Shown here piece after piece: positions 669 to 23,992 of a stretch of DNA of 41,255 nucleotides. The notes under the pieces were generated by a model. It was not told the origin of the DNA, ran no database searches, and saw only the letters and a program-made list of their open reading frames with translations. Position 1 is the stretch's first letter; the number at the start of each line of letters is the position of its first letter. This stretch comes from Candidatus Saccharimonadales bacterium (GTDB lineage Bacteria > Patescibacteriota > Saccharimonadia > Saccharimonadales > DATIHP01). The position numbers and the translations under genes are program-made. Location: assembly GCA_035480495.1 (NCBI GenBank), contig DATIHP010000045.1:1-41255 (forward strand), written 5' to 3'.

Positions 669-2798
669 CTAGTAATAGTACCAAGACGAAATACCGGTCG
701 AATTGGTGACGTCTTTGACTTTGATAGGGTCGCCGCCGTCTAAGCTGATGGCATAGTCCGCCGTTTCCTGGTCCGTTTTTACCCGATACACAAGCACGCT
801 GTCATTGAGCCATCGGACCGGATACGTGATACCGCTCTGGCTGCGCAGCGTGGTGTCGGTCTTGGTAGCTAGGTCGTAGATAAGTATGACGCCTTTGCCG
901 TCACGTTTATCAACCCAGGCGCTGTGTTTGCCATCCGGACTATCGATGTATATGCGCGAAGTCTGATTGACTGGAGCATTGTTCAGTTTTATCGGCGCTT
1001 TGTCCCCCAGATGATAGTCGTACCATTGCTGCTGGACGGACAGCGTCATGTGGTCATAGGCGGTCCTGAAGATATTCCAGACCTCCTGGCCGAAGACTGT
1101 CTGGGCCGAACTGCCATCCGCATTAATCTTATAGAAGTTGGTCGGCGTCGTCTGGTAGGCGCTGGACGGCGCGTAATAAATGGCTCCTTGCGCTGAGGTC
1201 ACATCATTGAAGTAATTAGCACTGGCCAGTTCTTTGCTGGAGCCGTCTTTGAAATCATAGCTGACAAGCCGGTAGCGTTTGGGGCTGTCTGCGCTGGCAC
1301 CGGCCGCAATCTGCACATAAACCAGCCGGTCACCAGCCCAATCGACAATCTGTATCCGTTCCGAGGTTGCGACAGCGGTCGTGGTATTATCCGTGGTGTT
1401 GATAAGCACCAGGTTGCTCAGCAAGAAACCGTCGCCGTTATGTTGGTTCCCCCGGTTAGAGACATAAGCGACGACCTCCTCCGATGGGTGCGGCACCAGT
1501 ACCATGTTGCTTTCCTGTTCGCTGCCACTGCCTGCTAGTACTAGTTTCTCGTCTTTGCCATCTATATAGACGCTGTAAATATCGTATTTACCAGAGCGTT
1601 TCGAGACAAAGAGCTGCTTGCGGGCTGGCACCAGTCTCACGACATGGTCGCCTTTATCGGCTGGATCAATCATGACTTGTTCGCTGCGGTAATTATCGGC
1701 TTGGACGGTAATCTGAATCTTCTGTTCATCCGGCTTATCGATAGTCAGCTTGATTGCACCCTTATCGTCTGCTGAGGCATCGGCGCCGTTGCCGGTGGCC
1801 AAGGCTTTAGCGATGGGTTTTTTGGATAGGTAATCCGTAATGGTAAACGTATATTGGCTGCCGGTCGGCTTCAGTTCGAAATCACCGAGCGGATTGCTGC
1901 CAAGCCCAAGCGTTATGGTCTTGGAAACCGGTGCGAAGGCGCGTTTTTCAACCAGTAATGTCTGGGGGCCCAGCTTAATATTCTTGAGACTGGCAGTGCC
2001 GCTGGCGTCGGTAACGACACTGACGCTACCGATTTGCACATGGACGTTTTTGAGCGGTTGGCCTGTACTTTCATCTACCACGCTCAATGAGCTGCTGGCA
2101 TGGACGCCGGCTGTATTCAGAACGAAATAACGTGACGTCGGAACCAAGACCGCGGTGATTATGCCAACCAATAAGGCAAGTAGCAGACCCCAGCGCACGA
2201 CCGGTCTGGCAAAGAATGACCTGATTGCGCCAGCAATGTGCTTCTTGGGCTTCGGTTCTTCTTCAGCGGGCTGGTCAGAATCGCGGATGGCGTCCTCTAC
2301 CTCTAGCAATTCATCACCTTCGCCGGCCACGATATCGTCTACAGCCTTGTCCGTCTCCGGATCGGTAACATTTGATACAGCGGCCAGTGCTGGGTCTCCT
2401 TCTATCGGTTTGCCATCATCCGGTATCATTTCGTCCCCTGCTTGGTCTTGGGATCCCAGCCCTGCTATGGCTTCGTCTAGCTTTTCAGCTACGATGGTAG
2501 GTGAATCGCTGTGTTCGGTAATCGTAATCTGCTTGACGGCTGCCGGGGCTTTGGCAGGCGTGGCAACCGGTGGCGCATCAGCATTCTGGGGCTGTGCATC
2601 CGGTAGTTCGGGCGCTGATGGCAAGGCATTTTCGGCGGGTGGTTCTGCCGATGATGACGGAGAAACTTGAATATTTTTGGGAGCTGAAGCAGGTTGTCCA
2701 GCAGGACTATCAGGAATGGTGGGGTCCATCATCTGCTTGACCTTTTGTTCAATGTCTTCGCTGCGCGGATTTAAGTCCTCGGTGCGTTCTTGTTTCAA
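669..2798 (-). CDS. large single-pass surface protein: acidic/Pro-Ala-rich N-terminal region, one TM helix, Ig-like/carboxypeptidase-regulatory-like repeats, C-terminal TolB/PD40-like beta-propeller region
   Basis: 709-aa ORF with a TTG start and AAGGA 12 nt upstream. It has a low-complexity N-terminus (PSAPELPDAQPQNADAPP...) and a TM segment (WGLLLALLVGIITAVLV). The C-terminus is beta-rich with repeated 'YVS../S.DG' strand patterns typical of propeller blades. The domain calls rest on sequence character only. Confidence 0.6.
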   Translation of the reverse strand: MKQERTEDLNPRSEDIEQKVKQMMDPTIPDSPAGQPASAPKNIQVSPSSSAEPPAENALPSAPELPDAQPQNADAPPVATPAKAPAAVKQITITEHSDSPTIVAEKLDEAIAGLGSQDQAGDEMIPDDGKPIEGDPALAAVSNVTDPETDKAVDDIVAGEGDELLEVEDAIRDSDQPAEEEPKPKKHIAGAIRSFFARPVVRWGLLLALLVGIITAVLVPTSRYFVLNTAGVHASSSLSVVDESTGQPLKNVHVQIGSVSVVTDASGTASLKNIKLGPQTLLVEKRAFAPVSKTITLGLGSNPLGDFELKPTGSQYTFTITDYLSKKPIAKALATGNGADASADDKGAIKLTIDKPDEQKIQITVQADNYRSEQVMIDPADKGDHVVRLVPARKQLFVSKRSGKYDIYSVYIDGKDEKLVLAGSGSEQESNMVLVPHPSEEVVAYVSNRGNQHNGDGFLLSNLVLINTTDNTTTAVATSERIQIVDWAGDRLVYVQIAAGASADSPKRYRLVSYDFKDGSSKELASANYFNDVTSAQGAIYYAPSSAYQTTPTNFYKINADGSSAQTVFGQEVWNIFRTAYDHMTLSVQQQWYDYHLGDKAPIKLNNAPVNQTSRIYIDSPDGKHSAWVDKRDGKGVILIYDLATKTDTTLRSQSGITYPVRWLNDSVLVYRVKTDQETADYAISLDGGDPIKVKDVTNSTGISSWYYY

Positions 2799-2865
2799 AA
2801 TATTGCTTGTCCTTACTCAGGGAGAAGTGTAGCAAATACACCGGTCAAACGCCAGGAACACGCCG

Positions 2866-3030
2866 GAGCCTACTCATAGTCTTTCTTCGGTATTCGAGGG
2901 CGGGTTACTGGCGTGGGATGGCGGTTTTCTGGTGACAAAGGGTAACTATAAGTTACCTTGCGAAGCCAAAAACCGCCAGATTGCGCCTGAAAGCTGCCCG
3001 CAGAACGGAGTTAAGGCTATGAGTAGGCTC
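2866..3030. repeat. 165-nt imperfect palindrome / extended rod-like hairpin between two minus-strand genes
   Basis: A perfect 14-bp inverted repeat, gagcctactcatag (2866-2879) / ctatgagtaggctc (3017-3030), encloses nested complementary segments. These are ggcggttttctgg (2920-2932) with ccaaaaaccgcc (2966-2977), gcggg with cccgc, and an apical hairpin ggtaact-ata-agttacc (2941-2957). Confidence 0.7.
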
Positions 3031-3489
3031 TTACCGGTGGCGCCTGCCGGATTTGTTCTTGACACGGTTTTTCTTCTTCTTCGGCCTTATGCGTGCCGGC
3101 GGTACAGGGTCGGTAGCTTCCTCAAAAGTCGGAATCTGTTCGTTTGGCTTCGGCCTTGCCAGCTTGGCCAGCAGCAGCAATCCGACTATCACCATAACCG
3201 CCACTACCATGAATCCTATCAACGGATTTGTATGCGCAGGCTGGATAGGAGTATCTATGGTAGTAGTGTTGGGAATAGTGGTCTGGCTGCCGAGCACGTG
3301 CAAGGAGTTGACCTTTGGGAATGCCTGGGGGTTGATACCAGGTTGATTAAAGGAGTTGGCGCTGTTGGTAGCCGTAGTAGGCTGTAGATTGGCCGAATTC
3401 GGTTGCAAGCCGCCCCCGACATTGTTCTGGGGGTTACCAGTAGTCGGTTGAAAGTCTGTAGCAACACTGCTGATTGATTGGTTTTCCAT
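3031..3489 (-). CDS. hypothetical single-pass membrane protein (Q/N/T/P-rich N-terminal region, TM helix, strongly basic C-terminal tail)
   Basis: 152-aa ORF with TM segment LIGFMVVAVMVIVGLLLLAKL followed by the tail KKKKNRVKNKSGRRHR. I recognise no family. Confidence 0.5.
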   Translation of the reverse strand: MENQSISSVATDFQPTTGNPQNNVGGGLQPNSANLQPTTATNSANSFNQPGINPQAFPKVNSLHVLGSQTTIPNTTTIDTPIQPAHTNPLIGFMVVAVMVIVGLLLLAKLARPKPNEQIPTFEEATDPVPPARIRPKKKKNRVKNKSGRRHR

Positions 3490-3560
3490 AAATACTTCTG
3501 CTTATTATACCGGAAGCCAGGATATAAACCTGGTACAAAACTTCCTACCACACAAACTGC

Positions 3561-3589
3561 TTGACAACATGTAAACATAGGCGTATTTT
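3561..3589 (+). promoter_or_regulatory. sigma70-like promoter (TTGACA-17 nt-TATTTT) placing the transcription start on the A of an ATG
   Basis: TTGACA lies at 3561-3566, followed by a 17-nt spacer and TATTTT at 3584-3589. Exactly 6 nt separate the -10 element from ATG 3596. The same geometry occurs at 10246-10282. Confidence 0.6.
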
Positions 3590-3595
3590 CAGCTT

Positions 3596-3676
3596 ATGGT
3601 TATAAACTCAAAAACAAATACATGCGCACGTACCGTCATCATGGCGGTTGGGGAGTCGCGTGTTTTTGTTGAGTAA
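3596..3676 (+). CDS. leaderless 26-codon micro-ORF (MVINSKTNTCARTVIMAVGESRVFVE), a candidate leader peptide or small protein; paralog of 10280..10351
   Basis: Hand translation was index-checked against the overlapping track ORF 3589..3921. It aligns codon-for-codon with the second micro-ORF (MV..., T7, R/K12, I15, V23). Confidence 0.45.
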   Translation: MVINSKTNTCARTVIMAVGESRVFVE

Positions 3677-3709
3677 ATAACCAAAACAAAACTAACAAAA
3701 GCAAACGAA

Positions 3710-3738
3710 CCTCCCCGAACTAAACGGGGAGGTTTTTT
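3710..3738 (+). terminator. intrinsic terminator hairpin CCUCCCCG-AACUAAA-CGGGGAGG plus U6
   Basis: An 8-bp GC-rich stem (3710-3717 / 3725-3732) is followed by tttttt (3733-3738). A near-identical hairpin lies at 10389-10411. Confidence 0.7.
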
Positions 3739-3753
3739 AAAAGGAAAACTAAA

Positions 3754-4134
3754 ATGGGTACTACTGCCAAACAGCTGGAGCAAAGAGTCCAAAGGGTGCA
3801 TTCGGCCCCGCGATTCGACAGGGCTGCACTTGCGGAATGGGAAGCTATAACGCAAGAGCAGGATACGGAAGTTTCTTTGGAGCGGCTTGCTTTTGAGTCG
3901 CTTTCGAGAAAACTTGACCAAGACCTCCCTGATCTCGTGTCTGGTCCTGAAGAGGAAACCAAGGATGAGGCCGCTCAGGTCATTGCTACTGGCGAATCTG
4001 AAGCAGTTGAAGTTGACCTTACTAGCCTTAGCGGCGAGGCTTTGCTTGAATTTGATTTTTCCGAAAGGATTGCCAGAATCAACGCTGGTCTTCTGTCTTT
4101 AGGAATCAGTGACAATTTAGCTCAGGCGAGTTGA
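3754..4134 (+). CDS. hypothetical acidic soluble protein (126 aa)
   Basis: ORF with ATG start and AAGGAAAA upstream. It has protein-like acidic helical composition and no recognisable family. It overlaps the convergent 3' end of the S51 peptidase gene by 18 nt. Confidence 0.4.
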   Translation: MGTTAKQLEQRVQRVHSAPRFDRAALAEWEAITQEQDTEVSLERLAFESLSRKLDQDLPDLVSGPEEETKDEAAQVIATGESEAVEVDLTSLSGEALLEFDFSERIARINAGLLSLGISDNLAQAS

Positions 4135-4734
4135 GTTACCATTCATCGTTAAAGCTTGATTATCATTCAGATATAAAACGCGGTCGTCCCCTTCATACAG
4201 CTTTTTCATGTGATTTATATATTCCACGAATCCAGGGTTATCAGCATGAGGAGCTACTATCCTATCGGTCAGACCCAGTCCTTCCCAGATAAGCTGGTCC
4301 GCTATCTCAGGCTCATCAGCGACTTCAGCTCCTTGCAATGTCAGCCCGGCTACGATTGCTCCCGCGCTTTCGCCGCAGTAAACGATGCCATTTTCTGCCA
4401 AATCCTTGATAATCCTATCAAAACCGCTGCGGCGCATTTCTGAGCGCAGCATGAAGGTATTGCCGCCGGCCGCCCAGATGGCGTCATAGGTTTTGAGCAC
4501 ATCGCGTAAGCGGTCTTTATCATCATGTTCGCGCAGGTCGGTCACGTCCGGATGTAAGCCGGCTTGCTCTAGATTGACAACTGTTTCATCAAGGCTCTGC
4601 GCCCTTTCGTCAGGAAGTTTGTAATCCTTGGCGTTAGGGATGATGGTAATCCTGACTTGCTCAGGCGGCTTATTGAGTAATCCAAGCAGTTCACCTGGTG
4701 TCGGCACCCCATAAGAGCTTAAATACAGCTTCAT
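4117..4734 (-). CDS. peptidase S51 family protein (dipeptidase E-like)
   Basis: 205 aa. It carries the family-typical AAGGNTF motif and a nucleophile-elbow-like CGESAGA, and has the size and layout of peptidase E. Confidence 0.7.
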   Translation of the reverse strand: MKLYLSSYGVPTPGELLGLLNKPPEQVRITIIPNAKDYKLPDERAQSLDETVVNLEQAGLHPDVTDLREHDDKDRLRDVLKTYDAIWAAGGNTFMLRSEMRRSGFDRIIKDLAENGIVYCGESAGAIVAGLTLQGAEVADEPEIADQLIWEGLGLTDRIVAPHADNPGFVEYINHMKKLYEGDDRVLYLNDNQALTMNGNSTRLS

Positions 4735-7417: not shown

Positions 7418-8398
7418 TCATAAGACTACCCTTATACGCCCAAAGTTTTTACCATTGAGATCCTTCAGCGCAATATTTTCCCATGTAAATTTTGCTTTTT
7501 CAAGCTGATTTGGCGAAAGAATACCCTGGCGAAAACTGTCATTTCTTGTATTCAATACTCCAACACCGGTCCAGAATTTCGCTATTGAGTCCTTGGTTGA
7601 GCCGACTGCTAGGAATACTCCTGAGGGTAATGGTTGGGTAAAGGCTAGGATTTTATCAGGCCTAAACGTATAACCCGCTTCCCGTTTGGTCAGTGAGATA
7701 TATGCATCATGGAGCAGAGTATTCTTCTCCATCCAAAGAGAGTCTGCGCGCTGTTGTGAATTCGGTTTTGCGTTCAGTTCAATCATTGCCGCGCGTTCCT
7801 TACTGACAACCGGTAGGCCTCCGGGTAGTTTTAGGGCAAACTTTTCTACGTCTTGCTCCAGTTTTTGATAAAACGCTTCGGGCGATTCAAACTGTTCATC
7901 GACGCCGGTTATGGTCATTTTGAAATTTTTTGGTTGATATTGCTTTAGGAAACTTAAAAGGTTCCGGTAGCTTGACTTGTAGGTCTCAACCTCAGTTAGG
8001 CTAATATTGTCCAGTTTTGGAAGTATCAGATCGTCTACGAACGAATCAAACCAAACTCCCGGTTCGTGAATCTCACAAATCGGCGCAAGCCATTTGGTGT
8101 AGTACATGAGTGCAAAGAGTTCCGCCCAGTCAACTTCTGGTGTTTCCTCAAGGCGCCAAAGTTTATAAGCTCCGTGCGTGAACATGACATTAATAGGTTT
8201 ACTCTGCTCAACGTTTGTACGTATTGCCTCTCTAATATGTGCAATGAGTTCGGGGTTAGCGGAATACTTACGGAATTTTTTGGACAACAGGATTTTTGAA
8301 ATCGCTTCAATAAGCTCTTCATTGTTTGCAGGCTTCTCTAAGCCAAGCGGCACATTGAGTTCTTTGAGTTTGGTCTGGATGTATTCTTGTGCGGTCAT
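7418..8398 (-). CDS. uncharacterised 326-aa protein, paralog 1 of a duplicated family in this locus
   Basis: It aligns over its full length with 9092..10072. Shared motifs are MTAQEYI, SKKFRK, KLW, PE[VI]DWAELF, EPG, LKQY, GSTK..AKFW and GKNF.RIR. There is no TM segment and I cannot assign a family confidently. Confidence 0.75.
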   Translation of the reverse strand: MTAQEYIQTKLKELNVPLGLEKPANNEELIEAISKILLSKKFRKYSANPELIAHIREAIRTNVEQSKPINVMFTHGAYKLWRLEETPEVDWAELFALMYYTKWLAPICEIHEPGVWFDSFVDDLILPKLDNISLTEVETYKSSYRNLLSFLKQYQPKNFKMTITGVDEQFESPEAFYQKLEQDVEKFALKLPGGLPVVSKERAAMIELNAKPNSQQRADSLWMEKNTLLHDAYISLTKREAGYTFRPDKILAFTQPLPSGVFLAVGSTKDSIAKFWTGVGVLNTRNDSFRQGILSPNQLEKAKFTWENIALKDLNGKNFGRIRVVL

Positions 8399-8476
8399 GA
8401 TTTTGGAGATGCGGGGCAGACATGAACCTGCCGTATGTAGCTTTGCAAGCTACCACCTATTCTCGGTCACCGCATC
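8399..8476 (-). promoter_or_regulatory. structured 5' leader, riboswitch-like three-way junction, copy 1
   Basis: Minus-strand RNA elements are:
- P1: GAUGCGG (8476-8470) / CCGCAUC (8414-8408)
- J1/2: UGACCGAGAAUAGGUGG
- P2: UAGCUU-GCA-AAGCUA
- J2/3: CAUAC
- P3: GGCAG-GUUCAUGU-CUGCC
Only UCCAAAAUC (9 nt, no SD) separates P1 from the AUG. The leader is part of a 100-nt block (8378-8477) identical to 10052-10151. Confidence 0.6.
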
Positions 8477-8482
8477 AGTATC

Positions 8483-8491
8483 ATTTTAACA
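8483..8491 (-). promoter_or_regulatory. extended -10 promoter TGTTAAAAT for leader copy 1
   Basis: The minus-strand TGnTAAAAT ends 6 nt upstream of the first P1 nucleotide. The homologous position in copy 2 is TGTTACAAT. Confidence 0.5.
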
Positions 8492-8516
8492 GAGATGGCT
8501 GGCTTAAATGAAAATG

Positions 8517-9095
8517 TTAGGTACTTATTCTTTCTTTGCCGAACGTGGGTCGATATATGCAGAACAGCATCACCACACAAGATAAAACTATGTAAGCTTG
8601 GAATATGACGCTCGACCTCAACCCGTCATGAACAATAGCCAAAGTTGCGGCTATACCTTCAAGCCAGTACATTAAAGGCGCTTCAGATTTTGGCAACTTC
8701 CAAGTTTTAAGCACTGCCGGTATATATGCGACTGCATCTGCCAGTATGGCAAAAGCTAATGCCCAAATGCCACTTCCTGTTACCTGCCAAGCCAGAATGC
8801 CAAGTACAGCAATAATTGCACAGCTGATATCAAGCCTGCTGGTGCCACCGATTCCTCTCTTTATTGATAAAAGCGCCAAGAGAAGGCTTCTTCCAAAGAA
8901 AAGTAGCGAAAGTAGTAAGACTCCCAGACCGGCGTGTGCCGCTATTGTCCCCACAAGATTAGCCACCGAAACTATGAAAAGTACTACACGCGTTGTCCGG
9001 TGCGGACGAGTCGTGCCTTTCAGGATGCTTAGCACATAATCTGTGGTTCCAACGACGGATAGGGTTGTGGCTATTCCCAGTAAAGCCGGTTTCAC
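8517..9095 (-). CDS. 7-TM membrane protein with 3+1+3 internal repeat (SWEET/PQ-loop/PnuC-like transporter candidate)
   Basis: 192 aa with a GTG start overlapping the upstream stop (GTGA at 9092-9095). I predict about seven hydrophobic helices. Two similar loop motifs follow helix 1 and helix 5 (SILKGTTRP and AVLKTWKLPKSE). Confidence 0.55.
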   Translation of the reverse strand: MKPALLGIATTLSVVGTTDYVLSILKGTTRPHRTTRVVLFIVSVANLVGTIAAHAGLGVLLLSLLFFGRSLLLALLSIKRGIGGTSRLDISCAIIAVLGILAWQVTGSGIWALAFAILADAVAYIPAVLKTWKLPKSEAPLMYWLEGIAATLAIVHDGLRSSVIFQAYIVLSCVVMLFCIYRPTFGKERIST

Positions 9096-10072
9096 GACGA
9101 TATTTCTTTCAAAATCCTAATTCTCTTAAAATTTTTACCTTCAAGGCCCGGGACATGGGTCTTTTGCCAATCAAATTGAGCTGTTTCCAGCTGTTTGGGT
9201 GTCAGGACAAGTTCGTTATAACTATCGCCGGCATGTTCAAGAGCTCCTACCGCGACCCAAAATTTTGCATATGACTTCTTGGTACTGCCTGTGGCGATAC
9301 AGCCTGGATAATAGGTTGGACACGAGGGAATCATTGAGGGGTCATTTATATATCTTTCCATGGTTTTGGTCCGTTCTATGCTCTGATGTATAAGCTCGGC
9401 CTTTTCGCGCCACAATGGGTCGTCCGTTTGCCCGGGTTTTAACCGCACATTAAGTTCCGTCGCTTCCCTTTGATGTTCGTCCAGTTCGGGAAGTTTGCCT
9501 CCTAGTTCTTTCGACACTTTTGCCTTGGCTTGCTCAAGTTCTGCCAGATATTCTGATATATCGCCATATTCATCGCCGTATCTTTTGTATGATACCGCAA
9601 CGTTTTCTGGCAGGTACTGTTTGAGCCAATTCAGCATAGCCACGAAAGAATCCGAGTATTTGTCCGTTTCCTGCTTGGGCAAGTTATTCATGTTTTCAAG
9701 GACAACATCTTCTGAGTAATACTCCAGCCTTGCCCCCGGCTCATAAACACTCGCGATTGATTTCATCCAGCGCAGTAGGTATGTCGTGACGAACAGCTCA
9801 GCCCAATCAATCTCCGGCGCCTCATCAAAATGCCACAGTTTATTGCCGCCAAAGATTACATTGACGACAATCGGCTTATTGTCTTTGACGGAAAGTTGTA
9901 TGGCCTTTTTAGTGATTGTTATCACGTTGTCGTCGGCTTTGAGTTTACGGAACTTCTTGGACATGACTTTAGCAAAGATGGCTTCTTCAATGGGCGTACT
10001 ACTAACATCAGTCAGTTCCGTGGACTCTTTGAGCGCCTGGAGTGTTGAGATGATGTATTCTTGTGCGGTCAT
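9092..10072 (-). CDS. uncharacterised 326-aa protein, paralog 2 of the duplicated family
   Basis: It has the same length and shared motifs as 7418..8398. Its first 7 codons and its leader are nucleotide-identical to paralog 1, and the rest is strongly diverged. Confidence 0.75.
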   Translation of the reverse strand: MTAQEYIISTLQALKESTELTDVSSTPIEEAIFAKVMSKKFRKLKADDNVITITKKAIQLSVKDNKPIVVNVIFGGNKLWHFDEAPEIDWAELFVTTYLLRWMKSIASVYEPGARLEYYSEDVVLENMNNLPKQETDKYSDSFVAMLNWLKQYLPENVAVSYKRYGDEYGDISEYLAELEQAKAKVSKELGGKLPELDEHQREATELNVRLKPGQTDDPLWREKAELIHQSIERTKTMERYINDPSMIPSCPTYYPGCIATGSTKKSYAKFWVAVGALEHAGDSYNELVLTPKQLETAQFDWQKTHVPGLEGKNFKRIRILKEISS

Positions 10073-10150
10073 GATTTTGGAGATGCGGGGCAGACATGAA
10101 CCTGCCGTATGTAGCTTTGCAAGCTACCACCTATTCTCGGTCACCGCATC
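10073..10150 (-). promoter_or_regulatory. structured 5' leader, riboswitch-like three-way junction, copy 2
   Basis: Nucleotide-identical to 8399-8476 at a constant offset of +1674. P1 strands lie at 10144-10150 and 10082-10088. Confidence 0.6.
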
Positions 10151-10156
10151 AAGATT

Positions 10157-10165
10157 ATTGTAACA
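10157..10165 (-). promoter_or_regulatory. extended -10 promoter TGTTACAAT for leader copy 2
   Basis: Minus-strand TGTTACAAT ends 6 nt upstream of P1, the same spacing as copy 1. Confidence 0.5.
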
Positions 10166-10245
10166 GCACGGCCAAGCTTGGCAGCTTCAAAATATCTCAT
10201 ACATGATTTAATTTAGGACCATGAGAACTTACGGAAATTTATTTG

Positions 10246-10273
10246 TTGACAGGCTTTTTGGCGGGTGTATGCT
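10246..10273 (+). promoter_or_regulatory. sigma70-like promoter (TTGACA-16 nt-TATGCT) placing the transcription start on the A of an ATG
   Basis: TTGACA lies at 10246-10251 and TATGCT at 10268-10273. Exactly 6 nt separate the -10 element from ATG 10280, the same geometry as 3561-3598. Confidence 0.6.
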
Positions 10274-10279
10274 ACCTGC

Positions 10280-10351
10280 ATGGTTACTATTAAACCCACG
10301 GCACAAGCCGTGAAGCTCACGATTATCGTGGCCCGCACGGGGAGTGTTTAG
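10280..10351 (+). CDS. leaderless 23-codon micro-ORF (MVTIKPTAQAVKLTIIVARTGSV), paralog of 3596..3676
   Basis: Hand translation was index-checked against track ORF 10323..10601. It begins ATGGTTA like the first micro-ORF. Confidence 0.45.
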   Translation: MVTIKPTAQAVKLTIIVARTGSV

Positions 10352-10388
10352 GTTTGTAGCCAATAAATAATAAAAAGACAAACCCAAA

Positions 10389-10415
10389 CCTCCCCGCCAT
10401 AAACGGGGAGGTTTT
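10389..10415 (+). terminator. intrinsic terminator hairpin CCUCCCCG-CCAUAAA-CGGGGAGG plus U4; its 3' arm doubles as the SD for the TTG start at 10420
   Basis: The 8-bp stem is identical to that of 3710-3732. GGAGG ends at 10411, 8 nt before TTG 10420. Confidence 0.7.
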
Positions 10416-10419
10416 AATT

Positions 10420-10692
10420 TTGTCGAAAGGATTCAAAAAAATGGAACGACCAACATTAACTGCACAAGCAGGAGCTGAGGCTGCTGGACAACGGCAAGAA
10501 GGTGCTTTACGGCATATGGCAGAGGCTGCCGTACATTTTGCTGCAGAATTGGGAACGGCATTGCTCACTCCATATTCACATGCAGCAGAAGCTTCCGTCA
10601 CACATGCTCAGCCAGATCGGCGTGCTGGAGACAAAGTAAACCCAATGCTAGTGGATGTGTCTCCTTGGGTCAGTACCGAACACCGGACTTAG
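10420..10692 (+). CDS. hypothetical Ala-rich small protein (90 aa from TTG 10420, or 83 aa from ATG 10441)
   Basis: ORF with GGAGG at ideal spacing for the TTG start. It ends 6 nt before the convergent aspS stop. I recognise no family. Confidence 0.35.
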   Translation: MSKGFKKMERPTLTAQAGAEAAGQRQEGALRHMAEAAVHFAAELGTALLTPYSHAAEASVTHAQPDRRAGDKVNPMLVDVSPWVSTEHRT

Positions 10693-20050: not shown

Positions 20051-21748
20051 ATGCATACCTCAGTATTCGGTGAACTAAGCCTTATCATAGCTATTGCCAG
20101 CGGCATGGCGCTTATCATGCGCCTGCTCCGGCAGCCGCTTATCATCGGTCATATCCTGACCGGTATATTGGTGGGTCCGGTCGTGTTGCACCTGGTCAAA
20201 TCCGCCGATACGATTGAGATATTTTCCAATATCGGCATTGCCCTTCTGCTGTTTATCATCGGCCTGGGTCTGAATCCGCGGGTTATCCGGGAAATCGGTA
20301 AGGTAGCCGCCATCGCGGGTATGTTGCAGGTCGGTATCAGCCTGGGGTTAGGCTATGGCGCCGGTGTCATCCTGGGGTTGGGACGCACCGAAGCACTGTT
20401 CTTAGGTGTCGCCTTGTCATTTTCCAGCACGATTATCATCCTGAAACTGCTCAGCGATAAAAAAGAGCAGACGCGGCTCTATGGCAAGGTCGTCGTCGGT
20501 CTGCTGCTGGTGCAGGATATCCTGGCTACCACTGCCCTGGTATTTGTGACCGCCCATAGCGCACAGTCCGGCTTCTCAGCTCATCAGTTGCTGGTTTTAT
20601 TCATCAAAGGCTGGGCGCTTGGCGGTGCTTTGCTGTTTATCGGCAATGTCATCCTGCCGCGTATGCATCGTCTGATTGCCAGCAGCCAGGAATTCCTATT
20701 CCTGTTTGCCATTGGCTGGGGTTTTGGCAGTGCGGCCCTGTTTGAACGCGCCGGCTTCAGCCTGGAAATCGGTGCGCTGCTGGCTGGCGTCGCTTTGTCC
20801 GGTCTGCCGTATACCCAGGAAATCAGTGCCCGGCTCAGGCCTTTGCGCGACTTCTTCATCATCGTATTCTTCATATCGCTGGGCACCCGCTTGGCGTTCG
20901 GTAACCTGGCCGTGCTGATACCTATCGTCGTCATGAGCAGTTTCATAGTCATCGTGCTCAAACCGCTCATCGTGATGCTTATCATGGGTTTCATGGGTTA
21001 CACCAAACGGACCAGTTTCAAGGCGGCTATCGCTATGGGCCAGGTCAGTGAATTCTCGCTGGTATTCGTCATCTTAGGTAACCGCTCCGGCTTGGTATCC
21101 GACAATCTGGTAAGCATCGTGACTATGGTGGCGCTCGTTTCCATCGCGGCCTCGACTTATATGATTATCTACGCCGACAAATTATTCTTGGGTATCGAAG
21201 AACATCTGGAGATGTTTGAACATGGCAAGCCGCAGTTGGAGCGTGAGTCGCGGCTACATTATGATTTAGTATTGTTCGGCTATTTACGCGGCGGCCATGA
21301 GTTCCTGAAACTGTTCCGCAGTCTGGGCAAACGCTATGTGGTCGTCGATTATGATCCAGAAGTAATCGACACGCTGGAGCATCAGAAGGCCAATTACCTC
21401 TACGGCGACGCGACGGACATAGAACTGCTCGAGGAAGTCGGTCTGGAGCATAGTAAGCTCATTGTCTCAGCCATGAGCGACCATGATACCAATGTCTTTC
21501 TCGTCAAACTGGCTGAGGGTATCAACCCCGGAGCCGTTGTCATCTGTTATGCCGAAAACGCCGTCCAGGCGGAGGAATTGTACAGGCTGGGCGCCAGTTA
21601 TGTGATGGTATCCCACTACATCGGTAGTGAAAAAATCAGTTCGTTCATCCGGCGCAGCGGCCTGAAGAAAAGTGAGTTCAAGAAATACCGCGAAAAGCAC
21701 CTGGCTTATCTCCAGACACATTTTCAGTCTGCGGTCGTAGTCGAATAA
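20051..21748 (+). CDS. cation:proton antiporter (CPA2, Kef-type) with C-terminal RCK/TrkA-N domain
   Basis: 565 aa with about 12 TM helices of Na+/H+-exchanger type. The soluble C-terminal domain has a VLFGYLRGG Rossmann-like start. An extended -10 TGTAGAAT lies upstream. Confidence 0.8.
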   Translation: MHTSVFGELSLIIAIASGMALIMRLLRQPLIIGHILTGILVGPVVLHLVKSADTIEIFSNIGIALLLFIIGLGLNPRVIREIGKVAAIAGMLQVGISLGLGYGAGVILGLGRTEALFLGVALSFSSTIIILKLLSDKKEQTRLYGKVVVGLLLVQDILATTALVFVTAHSAQSGFSAHQLLVLFIKGWALGGALLFIGNVILPRMHRLIASSQEFLFLFAIGWGFGSAALFERAGFSLEIGALLAGVALSGLPYTQEISARLRPLRDFFIIVFFISLGTRLAFGNLAVLIPIVVMSSFIVIVLKPLIVMLIMGFMGYTKRTSFKAAIAMGQVSEFSLVFVILGNRSGLVSDNLVSIVTMVALVSIAASTYMIIYADKLFLGIEEHLEMFEHGKPQLERESRLHYDLVLFGYLRGGHEFLKLFRSLGKRYVVVDYDPEVIDTLEHQKANYLYGDATDIELLEEVGLEHSKLIVSAMSDHDTNVFLVKLAEGINPGAVVICYAENAVQAEELYRLGASYVMVSHYIGSEKISSFIRRSGLKKSEFKKYREKHLAYLQTHFQSAVVVE

Positions 21749-22326
21749 AGCTTATGTCTTTTTATATATCTTTGTACTGCTGGGGGCAAGCCGTCAGCAG
21801 CTTTGTCCCGCTTGAGCAGCAGACGGATAGTTGAGGAGGTTACCTCTTCATAGGCAGGGTGAATGATTTCATATCTGAAGCGCAGGTTGCGGGTCTTTTC
21901 CAGGGTGTGAAGTGTCGCCGTGAGGTCGGACATATCCCGGAGTCGCGCAGCAATCATAAGTTCGGCCACATTCACCATGGCGCCTACATGCGGCCAGCTG
22001 GCGATATGGCTTATGACGTCCGCACCGAATAGCAGCACTAACTGATAGCCCGCAAAACGGGCCTGCAATTTCGGCAATGTCTCATGCACCGTGAAACGGG
22101 CCTGTTCCAAGGCAATTATGCCATAGCGGCCTTCATGGGCAATCGCCAAACGTACCATAGCGCGGCGGTGTTCAAGCGCCCGCACACCTTGTTTGCGGCG
22201 CGGCCGGGGCTCGGGCAAGAACATGACTTTCTCTAAGCCCGCATCTAAGGCCGCCTGTGCGAAGGCGATATGGCCGTCATGAATCGGGTCGAAGGTTCCG
22301 GCAAATATACCTATTTTTTTGGTCAT
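21724..22326 (-). CDS. nadD: nicotinate-nucleotide adenylyltransferase
   Basis: GIFAGTFDPIHDGHI matches the (H/T)xGH nucleotidyltransferase motif, and a C-terminal SSTIR motif is present. I place the start at ATG 22326, which overlaps the upstream gene's TGA (ATGA). The track ORF extends to 22353. Confidence 0.85.
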   Translation of the reverse strand: MTKKIGIFAGTFDPIHDGHIAFAQAALDAGLEKVMFLPEPRPRRKQGVRALEHRRAMVRLAIAHEGRYGIIALEQARFTVHETLPKLQARFAGYQLVLLFGADVISHIASWPHVGAMVNVAELMIAARLRDMSDLTATLHTLEKTRNLRFRYEIIHPAYEEVTSSTIRLLLKRDKAADGLPPAVQRYIKRHKLYSTTTAD

Positions 22327-23792
22327 GCTGCTTTTAGTATACCTACCGCCCATGAGCCAGCTTTAGATTTTTCCCTTTTTGGCGGCTTACTTTCATGCAG
22401 TACTTTTCCGTCACAGATGTCTACTTCATATTTACAGTGTGGGCAGCGCCAACTTTTTTCTTTGACTACATCTTTTTTATTGACAGTTTCACGGCATTTT
22501 ATGCAGCGGATTTTTCCCGATTTGGAATCAGTTTCATCGTTTAATCGGTCGCTTGATTGTTCATCTGTATTTTCCTGGCCGTCTTTATTTTTTTCCTCCT
22601 GGAGGGCCCCGGGACAGGACGAAGATTTGGCAGTTTTTTCAGCATTGTGAAGAGCGGCGTCGGCTAATTCATAATTTCCTGATGCACGATGCGTACGAGC
22701 CTGTTGTATGTGGCCAGCTGCTGTTGGACCAAATACATTTGGATTAATTGACTTGTCGTCTACTGCGTTTCGCACCCCTGCTTTTTCTGATAATTTACCT
22801 AAGCGCTTGGTAGCATCCGTTGGTGTTTTAAATGTATGCCTTTCGCTAATCAGTTGGCGCCTGATATCTTCGACCATAGATTTAAGACCCGCTTGGCGCT
22901 GCCTCCAAAATTCTCTATGTTTTACATAGTCTTGCTGAGGTTTATCTTCTCCAAAAAATGTTCCCTCCGGCTCATCAAACCAAGCCACTGGGTCAACCAC
23001 ACCATTCGGCATTAATTTTTTAGGTATTAACAGGGGGGAATCTAGTATTTGAGTAGTTGACATGTTATCAAAATTTTTACCTAGTTTCTTGGCTATATAT
23101 TTGACTGCTTTTATGTCATGCCTCTCGGCTCCTGGACGCTTAACCCCTGCTACAAATGCAGATTCCAACTTTACACTGTCTTCTTGCGCCGTTGTCGCCT
23201 GCATAGCACAAGACATTGTGTCTACAAAAAAGTCTTCTTCAATCAATTCTTCTTGGGTCATATTATCCGGGACAAGTGAAAAGACGACAAAATAGTTATC
23301 CTCTAGCAGGCCCATCTCCTGGGCAATATCTTGACGATATTTATTGCGAGCCTCTGCTTGCAAGCGTTCACGCATTTGCCAGGTACGGCCAACGAAACGC
23401 AAGCTATTGCCATTTACTGAATCCAGGCTCTGGCCATGCTGTCCAAGACCGTTTTGCCCGTCTGCACGCAAGTCAACTTCCGTGATTGAGCCAGCCTTAA
23501 AACTACGCTCTATGTAATCTGCCTCAATGTTTTGATCTACCATATTTATGCCGTTCGCATCGCCAGCAGCGGCTAAGCGGATTCCTTCTAAGAGGTTATG
23601 GGAAATGCCTGGATGTTGGTCACTTTTTTTTGGCAATTCACCCGCCACTGCTAAAGAACCGTTAGCTCTCATGAGTCGTTTGGCGCGTTGTTGTGCCAGC
23701 TGGTCTTCGGGCATCGTGGGCATAACAATCACATCAGTTGCCATCCGTTCTGCGGTTGGTAATCGTTCGGCTATCGCGGCTGCTCCGGCCAT
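22323..23792 (-). CDS. orphan ~489-aa soluble protein with C-terminal CxxC...CxxC zinc ribbon and Lys-rich tail
   Basis: The track ORF runs to 23909 with a GTG start. ATG 23792 has GAGGG 7 nt upstream, and the 39-codon extension is Cys-rich, non-protein-like and overlaps a strong hairpin. The zinc ribbon is IRCIKCRET...WRCPHCKYE. I recognise no family. Confidence 0.6.
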   Translation of the reverse strand: MAGAAAIAERLPTAERMATDVIVMPTMPEDQLAQQRAKRLMRANGSLAVAGELPKKSDQHPGISHNLLEGIRLAAAGDANGINMVDQNIEADYIERSFKAGSITEVDLRADGQNGLGQHGQSLDSVNGNSLRFVGRTWQMRERLQAEARNKYRQDIAQEMGLLEDNYFVVFSLVPDNMTQEELIEEDFFVDTMSCAMQATTAQEDSVKLESAFVAGVKRPGAERHDIKAVKYIAKKLGKNFDNMSTTQILDSPLLIPKKLMPNGVVDPVAWFDEPEGTFFGEDKPQQDYVKHREFWRQRQAGLKSMVEDIRRQLISERHTFKTPTDATKRLGKLSEKAGVRNAVDDKSINPNVFGPTAAGHIQQARTHRASGNYELADAALHNAEKTAKSSSCPGALQEEKNKDGQENTDEQSSDRLNDETDSKSGKIRCIKCRETVNKKDVVKEKSWRCPHCKYEVDICDGKVLHESKPPKREKSKAGSWAVGILKAA

Positions 23793-23820: not shown

Positions 23821-23992
23821 CTATGAATCAAATTCAACGCTCCTGCTCGGGAGACTTTATGTATGTTGTATCGGGCTTTAACCGTTGCGGCACAGCATAG
23901 GAATTTCACCTATTTCCAACAATTTTTATTAATAAAGAACCTGTGAGTAGTAGTGTAACACGGCCCATAGACGCTATATGTAGTATTTTTGT

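Follow-up and report, generated by a model that had tools for sequence, protein, structure and literature searches.

Two short plus-strand units in a 41,255-nt stretch of DNA from a Candidatus Saccharimonadales bacterium (NCBI GenBank assembly GCA_035480495.1, contig DATIHP010000045.1, positions 1 to 41,255 of the forward strand; hereafter the window) belong to a family of elements with a common design: a promoter directly before an ATG, an open reading frame (ORF) of 21-27 codons, an RNA pairing that competes with an intrinsic terminator, and a small protein gene just beyond it. We propose, with moderate confidence and on grounds of sequence and predicted folding, that each unit, called here copy A and copy B, forms the 5' leader of its small protein gene and attenuates transcription in a ribosome-dependent manner, with a leader peptide translated from a leaderless ORF. 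The mechanism class is a textbook one; the element family and its host lineage, Saccharimonadia within the candidate phyla radiation (CPR), are new. For Saccharibacteria and the rest of the CPR we found no description of a comparable cis-regulatory RNA or attenuator, and to our knowledge the leaderless-sensor attenuator design has been characterized mainly in Corynebacterium. If the proposal is correct, epibionts with reduced genomes would use leaderless translation as the sensor of an attenuator, beyond its use at housekeeping genes. The family supplies a searchable motif with a covariance model and a hypothesis on how a group of small conserved proteins may be regulated; ORFs of 21-27 codons and their leaders are currently invisible in the annotation of metagenome-assembled genomes (MAGs).

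Searches beyond the window added nine members to the two window copies, giving eleven distinct sequences in which the frame of the leader ORF and the alternative pairing are conserved. Scans of genome and metagenome collections for the exact terminator hairpin contributed L024, L044 and L051; homologs of the copy B small protein led to L049, L102 and L103; and synteny at the aspartyl-tRNA synthetase (AspRS) gene led to L098, L099 and the divergent L101. L100 is identical to L099, and the pair is counted once. The exact hairpin had 43 matches in the genome scan and 40 in the metagenome scan, of which only L024, L044 and L051 are family members; the remainder are generic terminators in other phyla. 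Scanning viral contigs returned three matches, all ordinary terminators, and a covariance-model match in L018 consists of the terminator only. The covariance model, searched against the window with filters off, finds copies A and B and no third copy. Neither unit matches any family in Rfam 15 at gathering or permissive thresholds; the best sub-threshold scores are 24.3 bits for ncr1575 (gathering 60) and 19.7 bits for Phe_leader (gathering 55), the latter a terminator-like resemblance only.

All eleven members lie in Saccharimonadia-like contigs or contexts. L044 (DATLEQ010000032.1) was deposited as part of a Candidatus Limnocylindrales (Chloroflexota) MAG, but its 440-aa AspRS is very similar, by eye, to that of the Patescibacteria contig L024, with which it shares the same synteny of leader, small ORF and AspRS; the L044 contig is probably mis-binned.

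The promoters and leader ORFs of the window copies are as follows.
Positions 3561-3589, plus strand: copy A promoter, with -35 box TTGACA at 3561-3566, a 17-nt spacer and -10 box TATTTT at 3584-3589, matching 10 of 12 consensus positions.
Positions 10246-10273, plus strand: copy B promoter, with TTGACA, a 16-nt spacer and TATGCT.
Positions 3596-3676, plus strand: copy A leader ORF, 26 codons and TAA, MVINSKTNTCARTVIMAVGESRVFVE.
Positions 10280-10351, plus strand: copy B leader ORF, 23 codons and TAG, MVTIKPTAQAVKLTIIVARTGSV.

In copy A the ATG at 3596 stands 6 nt past the -10 box, exactly as read in the original prediction, and copy B repeats this geometry, with its opening ATGGTTA at 10280 again 6 nt past the -10 box. 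The pattern TTGACA-N16-18-TANNNT-N5-8-ATGGTTA has exactly these two matches in the window, where shuffled sequences lead one to expect 0.00. Promoter geometry is constant across the eleven members: TTGAC(A/G/T), 16-17 nt, TAnnnT, 6-7 nt, ATG. Because the -10 box always ends 6-7 nt before the ATG, the predicted transcription start is the A of the ATG itself, which leaves no room for a Shine-Dalgarno (SD) sequence; transcription would begin at the leader ATG, and initiation on the leader would be leaderless. Gene starts elsewhere in the window, at 4734, 6545, 12008, 25175, 26881 and 32232, lack an SD sequence and carry a -10-like box that ends 7-8 nt ahead of the start codon, often together with a -35 box. 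Genes with this signature include those for a peptidase S51, an ABC ATPase (6545) and AspRS (12008). Its presence at several housekeeping genes makes leaderless initiation plausible in this organism, and leaderless mRNAs look common in this genome; we found no literature on leaderless mRNAs in Saccharibacteria.

In 11 of 11 members, the frame that begins with the 5' ATG (frame 1) runs for 21-27 codons without a stop. Up to the G-rich motif near the end of the ORF (the G-motif, GGGGAG in both window copies), frame 1 has 0 stops in 192 codons while frames 2 and 3 together have 21 in 370 (P ~1e-5, or P = 2e-3 if the hypervariable middle alone is counted, both values ignoring relatedness and phylogenetic dependence). 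From the ATG to a conserved GGCN block the distance is 42, 48, 51 or 54 nt, always in phase, including across a 9-nt deletion in L102, and every indel upstream of the hydrophobic block is a multiple of 3. From the GGCN anchor to the G-motif, the distance is 4, 7 or 9 nt and the frame is not kept. The leader stop is retained as TAG, TGA or TAA; the close relatives L049 and L103 have TAG in one and TGA in the other at the same place. The encoded peptide starts MVTFK or MTTK, passes through a middle that is poorly conserved even between L049 and L103, reaches a cluster of two to four I, V, M or L residues, and continues A-(R/Q/H)-x-G. Homology of the two window peptides, as first proposed, is weak; the conserved features are the open frame, the N-terminus and the short hydrophobic cluster. 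Judged by these sequences, the open frame matters, and the peptide sequence itself matters little.

The longest hydrophobic patch of the leader peptide spans 3-6 residues and no membrane helix is present. A pheromone resembling the short hydrophobic peptides (SHP) was considered and is not supported, for want of a membrane helix and of any regulator-type domain in the flanking genes by a Pfam scan that included both divergent upstream genes.

Overlapping the leader ORF and extending beyond it, the predicted RNA features of the two copies are these.
Positions 3597-3603, plus strand: copy A, 5' strand of helix P1, UGGUUAU, predicted to pair with 3677-3683 (AUAACCA), closing the 5' domain and sequestering the start codon.
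Positions 10356-10362, plus strand: copy B, 3' strand of P1, GUAGCCA, pairing with 10281-10287 (UGGUUAC).
Positions 3650-3674, plus strand: copy A, anti-terminator 5' strand (segment 2), with GGGGAG at 3650-3655, UCG and UGUUUUUGUU..AGU, overlapping the end of the leader ORF.
Positions 3691-3716, plus strand: copy A, anti-terminator 3' strand (segment 3), ACU-AACAAAAGCA..CGA..CUCCCC, whose 3' end is the terminator 5' arm.
Positions 3708-3738, plus strand: copy A, intrinsic terminator, AACCUCCCCG, a 7-nt loop, CGGGGAGGUU and a U run.
Positions 10339-10357, plus strand: copy B, anti-terminator 5' strand, GGGGAG-U-GUUU-A-GGUUUGU, containing the leader stop UAG (10349-10351).
Positions 10378-10395, plus strand: copy B, anti-terminator 3' strand, ACAAACC-C-AAAC-CUCCCC.
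Positions 10386-10421, plus strand: copy B, intrinsic terminator, AAACCUCCCCG, a 7-nt loop, CGGGGAGGUUU and UAAUUUU.

The terminator stem had been described as identical in the two copies, and the hairpin CCTCCCCG-N7-CGGGGAGG does occur in the window at two sites only, 3710-3732 and 10389-10411 (shuffles expect 0.01). Family-wide, the stem is G+C-rich, 10-11 bp long, with a 7-nt loop, and its sequence is identical in 8 of 11 members, a level of conservation biased upward by the members ascertained through exact hairpin search. The 5' arm of this stem has a second partner. Pairing of GGGGAG with CUCCCC, noted earlier for the window copies, turns out to be the outer part of a much longer anti-terminator, in which G-motif..GUUUGU pairs with ACAAAC..CUCCCC. 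This structure is the minimum free energy (MFE) fold of segments 2 and 3 in 9 of the 9 members folded (out of the eleven), at -15 to -26 kcal/mol and z of -2.3 to -6.1, all folding energies here being predictions; the hairpin has -24.7 kcal/mol (z -5.3) in copy A and -23.3 kcal/mol (z -6.1) in copy B. With each base of the terminator 5' arm having two alternative partners, the near-invariance of the stem is accounted for. The A/C-rich spacer ahead of the terminator, likened in the original prediction to a rut (Rho utilization) site, pairs with the G/U-rich stretch that starts at the G-motif and is better explained as the anti-terminator 3' strand; the rut reading is rejected.

Conservation of the G-motif as RNA, suggested at first by the two window copies, where it falls in different frames (GTT GGG GAG in copy A, 3650-3655; ACG GGG AGT in copy B, 10339-10344), holds across the family: the motif is kept as nucleotides in two reading frames. 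Compensatory differences preserve the anti-terminator in several members, as UUUUGU:ACAAAA in L049, as GUUUGG:CCAAAC together with GAGUCC:GGACUC, matching an altered terminator arm, in L101, and as GGGAG:CUCCC with a terminator one pair shorter in L102; copy A has a different inner helix, UGUUUUUGUU:AACAAAAGCA. In a MAFFT alignment of the 11 sequences that was not fitted to structure, 82% of anti-terminator cells pair, against 38-57% when the partner strand is slid, and the covariation score reaches 0.096, compared with 0.046 at most when slid. Covariation on such alignments is weak because copy A, L101 and L024 are misaligned. The covariation support for the anti-terminator is real but modest.

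Ahead of the anti-terminator, the 5' AUGGUUA of both window copies is complementary to UAACCA or UAGCCA about 80 nt downstream, and in the family UGGUUA(C/U) pairs with (G/A)UA(A/G)CCA just after the leader stop to form P1. In copy A this helix has 7 bp, which 2.3% of shuffled targets equal. Full-length transcripts fold as a 5' domain followed by the terminator (MFE -55.7 kcal/mol and z -8.0 in copy A, z -4.9 in copy B). The interior of the 5' domain is hypervariable, its predicted fold being a rod in copy A and multi-branched in copy B, and the alifold consensus of the eleven sequences keeps only the P3 hairpin and the terminator.

Two details of the terminator region were seen by direct reading of the sequences. 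UUGUC stands right after the terminator U run (10418-10424 in copy B) in all nine B-type members (B, L024, L044, L049, L051, L098, L099, L102 and L103), and copy A is without it; the motif is complementary to the conserved linker GACAA (10377-10382) and might lengthen the terminator hairpin at its base when transcription reads through. In L098 (3121-3160, minus strand) and L099 (4608-4650, minus strand) one terminator pair, the same in both, is mismatched (C.A and C.U instead of C-G), and the G-motifs are altered as well (CGGGG and CGGGAG); these two members may be weakened or re-tuned switches.

These parts suggest the following switch. A sigma-70-type promoter would place the 5' end of the transcript on the A of the AUG or at most one base away, so that the leader ORF of 21-27 codons would be translated without an SD sequence. 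The RNA could form three mutually exclusive pairings: 1:2, in which the G/U-rich stretch at and beyond the leader stop is bound by UGGUUA and further parts of the leader ORF (the P1-closed 5' domain, a proposed anti-anti-terminator); 2:3, the anti-terminator, in which G-motif..GUUUGU finds its complement in the A/C-rich spacer together with the terminator 5' arm (ACAAAC..AAAC-CUCCCC); and 3:4, the intrinsic terminator. On arriving at the end of the ORF or at its stop, a ribosome would cover segment 2 and leave the 5' arm free, so that the terminator forms, an RNA of about 140 nt is released and the gene is off. If delayed within about the first 15-17 codons, through the Ile/Val/Met cluster, the ribosome would cover segment 1 and leave segment 2 free to capture the 5' arm ahead of synthesis of the 3' arm, giving read-through and expression of the small protein. 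With no ribosome at all, the 5' domain would form first and should favor termination, a less certain step. The switch would respond to slow translation of branched-chain or Met codons, reflecting the supply of Ile-, Val- or Met-tRNA, or general translation stress.

The geometry of the family fits this scheme. Leader stop codons lie inside the anti-terminator 5' strand in 9 of 9 members tabulated. When ribosome positions were simulated on a nascent RNA ending at the terminator 5' arm, with a 27-nt footprint blocked, the anti-terminator formed with the P-site at codon 1 up to codons 13-17 in 10 of 11 members (L098 is patchier), and ribosomes on the last 6-10 codons or at the stop left the 5' arm free; the switch point coincides with the I/V/M cluster. 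A translation-coupled attenuator, as first conceived for the window copies, is accordingly supported by a frame open in 11 of 11 members, an anti-terminator, the position of the stop and the gene downstream.

Several observations weigh against this proposal. Some concern the RNA: a U tract follows the terminator in 10 of 11 members, L101 having no clear one; P1 has 6-7 bp in six members but is weakened in three and poor in two; and only two anti-terminator pairs change on both sides, with 25 of 500 shuffles reaching the observed covariation score, so that the covariation check suggested for the element finds some compensatory changes but modest statistics. Others concern the dynamics. Once the whole terminator is present, equilibrium folding favors it at almost every ribosome position, and anti-termination would therefore need to be under kinetic control, like that of classical attenuators. 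For nascent RNA without a ribosome, the anti-terminator is the favored equilibrium structure in 7 of 11 members, a mixed preference that makes the step from no translation to an off state doubtful. The leader itself contains no run of codons for a single amino acid, as a classical amino-acid-specific attenuator would, and the I/V/M cluster comprises just 2-4 codons, reduced to LV in L102. Finally, conserved leader codons show 0 synonymous changes in 8 between copy B and L049, against 26 in 56 for the downstream gene, so the conserved blocks are constrained as RNA at least as much as peptide.

The missing codon run does not count against a general stalling sensor. Upstream ORFs (uORFs) without an amino-acid run, in the Listeria hflXr leader and in E. 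coli toiL, sense general stalling and gate downstream transcription (PMC6310831, PMC12121999), which means that such a run is not required. Those uORFs differ from the element described here in being SD-led and in preceding known stress-function genes, and toiL acts through Rho rather than an intrinsic terminator; nothing links the present element to antibiotics.

The scarcity of synonymous changes in leader blocks kept at the nucleotide level is also what one would expect of a riboregulator independent of translation, such as a riboswitch, a protein-binding leader or a thermosensor, with the P1-closed domain as sensor and the ORF incidental. A ligand or protein that stabilized the 5' domain would then withhold segment 2 from the anti-terminator; a P1-closed domain overlapping an anti-terminator is, moreover, a standard riboswitch expression platform, and the folded RNA sequesters the 5' AUG, which would disfavor leaderless initiation. 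We consider such a regulator unlikely. The hypervariable interior of the 5' domain offers no conserved junction, loop or aptamer core and folds differently between members, P3 is removed by the 9-nt deletion in L102, P1 is poor in several members, and Rfam holds no match. An RNA-only model also leaves the openness of frame 1, the in-phase indels and the stop-to-stop substitutions unexplained.

Beyond each terminator lies a small gene.
Positions 3741-4134, plus strand: the gene putatively regulated by copy A, with SD AAGGAA at 3741-3746 and ATG at 3754, encoding a 126-aa acidic orphan (hypothetical protein VLE74_02070).
Positions 10426-10692, plus strand: the gene putatively regulated by copy B, with SD AAAGGA at 10426-10431 and ATG at 10441, encoding an 83-aa protein of a small family.

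An SD sequence and ATG about 20 nt after the U run are found in all eleven members, and no separate promoter lies between terminator and small ORF (computed for copies A and B, by eye for the others). The two window proteins are unrelated to each other. For the 126-aa protein, a search of 5.8 billion proteins returned its self match only. The copy B ORF differs from its L049 ortholog at 14, 21 and 45 sites in codon positions 1, 2 and 3, with 26 codons changed synonymously only, which marks it as a genuine gene subject to purifying selection. Among 1.84 billion representative proteins, a profile search found just 14 relatives, of about 80-100 aa, with the motifs HEG..GHVV..PYS..DRR..GDKVNP..HRT; the main family is His-rich, and the L044 and L098 proteins form a related subgroup. 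The leader stands upstream in both of the two family loci fetched from this search. The family hidden Markov model (HMM) does not detect the ORFs after copy A, L051 or L101, and the downstream proteins are without a match in Pfam, NCBIfam or PADLOC. An AlphaFold2 (AF2) model shows a single long helix with a predicted local distance difference test (pLDDT) score of 63, too poor for a fold search. Neighboring long genes of both units are on the minus strand, and since both small ORFs converge with the next minus-strand gene, each unit with its small ORF makes up a monocistronic plus-strand module. The units had been called plus-strand islands, which is right as to their neighbors, but they do not stand alone, as each leads into a small downstream ORF. 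In the metagenome contig L051, the element and its small ORF (1281-1423, minus strand) lie directly downstream of a heavy-metal P-type ATPase gene (1493-3496, minus strand) and not beside AspRS.

That module bears on the idea of a stand-alone small gene, either for a trans-acting small RNA (sRNA) of about 140 nt that would use, for example, the invariant CCUCCCC or GGGGAG or for a leaderless mRNA encoding a peptide of 21-27 aa, with the downstream ORF expressed by leakage or unlinked. The unit does have its own strong promoter and terminator, a stable fold (z of -8.0 and -4.9), an invariant stem sequence that resembles SD and anti-SD sequences, and a peptide with a recurring N-terminus and hydrophobic cluster. 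There is precedent as well: in Sinorhizobium, the terminated attenuator RNA rnTrpL and the leader peptide peTrpL can both act in trans (PMC6614838, PMC7298713). As the sole function, a stand-alone gene nonetheless seems rather unlikely to us. SD sequence and small ORF follow the U run in every member with no promoter seen in between, the leader's presence at both fetched loci implies that read-through is needed to express a gene kept by purifying selection, a simple sRNA would have no use for the extended anti-terminator, and the middle of the peptide is poorly conserved. A role as sRNA or peptide is compatible with attenuation as a second function and can coexist with it; rnTrpL/peTrpL would be the model for this dual-function reading, although a trans target for the present element is hypothetical.

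The distribution of the element is patchy, in that it is missing at the syntenic site in the closest AspRS relatives (83-86% identity; L090-L096, and L097) and present in more distant ones. Patchiness would suit a selfish cassette of toxin-antitoxin type, either type I, with a toxic peptide and a fold-back mRNA, or type III-like, with structured RNA, terminator and protein. The order RNA-terminator-protein resembles type III loci, and 5'-3' fold-back is a feature of hok-type mRNAs. A promoter-like match, TAAACA-17-GATAAT, also runs antisense inside leader B (10350-10322, minus strand); its -10 box is the reverse complement of the conserved ATTATC (Ile-Ile) block, its -35 box is, by direct reading, not conserved in other members, and the match is probably due to chance. 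With a peptide that has only a short hydrophobic patch and no membrane helix, an RNA without tandem repeats, downstream proteins outside every PADLOC, Pfam and NCBIfam family, and a single low-confidence helix as the modeled protein structure, we regard such a cassette as very unlikely.

Read as an attenuator, the element has its closest analogue, in our comparison, in the Corynebacterium glutamicum ilvBNC attenuator. There the Ile/Val-rich leader IlvL, MTIIRLVVVTARRLP, lacks a ribosome-binding site (RBS) and has its transcription start site (TSS) 1 nt from the start codon; an anti-anti-terminator over the start region (H1), an anti-terminator (H2) and a terminator (H3) compete, and a short terminated transcript is made (PMC11857589). 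Both systems have the leader start at or near the TSS and three competing hairpins (each by prediction in the present case), and the peptides have a similar flavor, TII..V..TAR here beside LTIIVART. The two have no detectable relationship in sequence or in Rfam. The present element has only 2-4 branched-chain or Met codons, deleted in one member, precedes monocistronic small-protein genes rather than amino-acid biosynthesis, and resides in a CPR host with an almost invariant terminator stem and several copies per genome.

Enterobacterial attenuators use the same 1:2/2:3/3:4 logic, with a terminating ribosome at the leader stop masking segment 2. The element resembles the trp, his, thr, leu and phe leaders in this logic, in the placement of the stop and, according to the simulation, in putative control codons just upstream of the switch boundary. 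Unlike it, those leaders have SD sequences, runs of cognate codons and biosynthetic operons downstream. Mycobacterial leaderless poly-Cys short ORFs form a first cistron in which stalling controls the downstream gene (10.1101/834739) and share with the element a short sensor ORF that starts at a 5' AUG. They differ in acting on translation, as stalled ribosomes unmask an RBS, with no terminator/anti-terminator pair, and in having an obvious tract of Cys codons and regulating genes of cysteine metabolism.

A more far-reaching version of the proposal, which we think improbable as a whole, would make the element a Saccharimonadia-specific sensor of translation status, for example of host-derived amino acid supply to an epibiont unable to make its own. 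In this version the terminated RNA of about 140 nt, an abundant product, would have a further role in trans, on ribosomes or mRNAs, through its near-invariant CCUCCCC (anti-SD-like) and GGGGAGG (SD-like) sequences, and the read-through products would be fast-evolving His-rich small proteins for host interaction.

Two other features of the window were noted. A direct repeat of 138 nt with 90% identity (8355-8492 and 10029-10166) takes in the start of each of two paralogous 326-aa genes (7418-8398 and 9092-10072, both minus strand) along with the region upstream of it, and the 45-nt upstream sequences of the two genes are identical; the proposed attenuator of copy B follows only the second repeat copy (10029-10166). 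An AdoCbl-II riboswitch (23857-23935, minus strand; 47.9 bits against a gathering threshold of 36.5) is the only Rfam match in the window. It lies just upstream of, and may control, an ORF of about 489 aa (22323-23792, minus strand) with no Pfam match, which is followed by a cytidylyltransferase-like gene (21724-22353).

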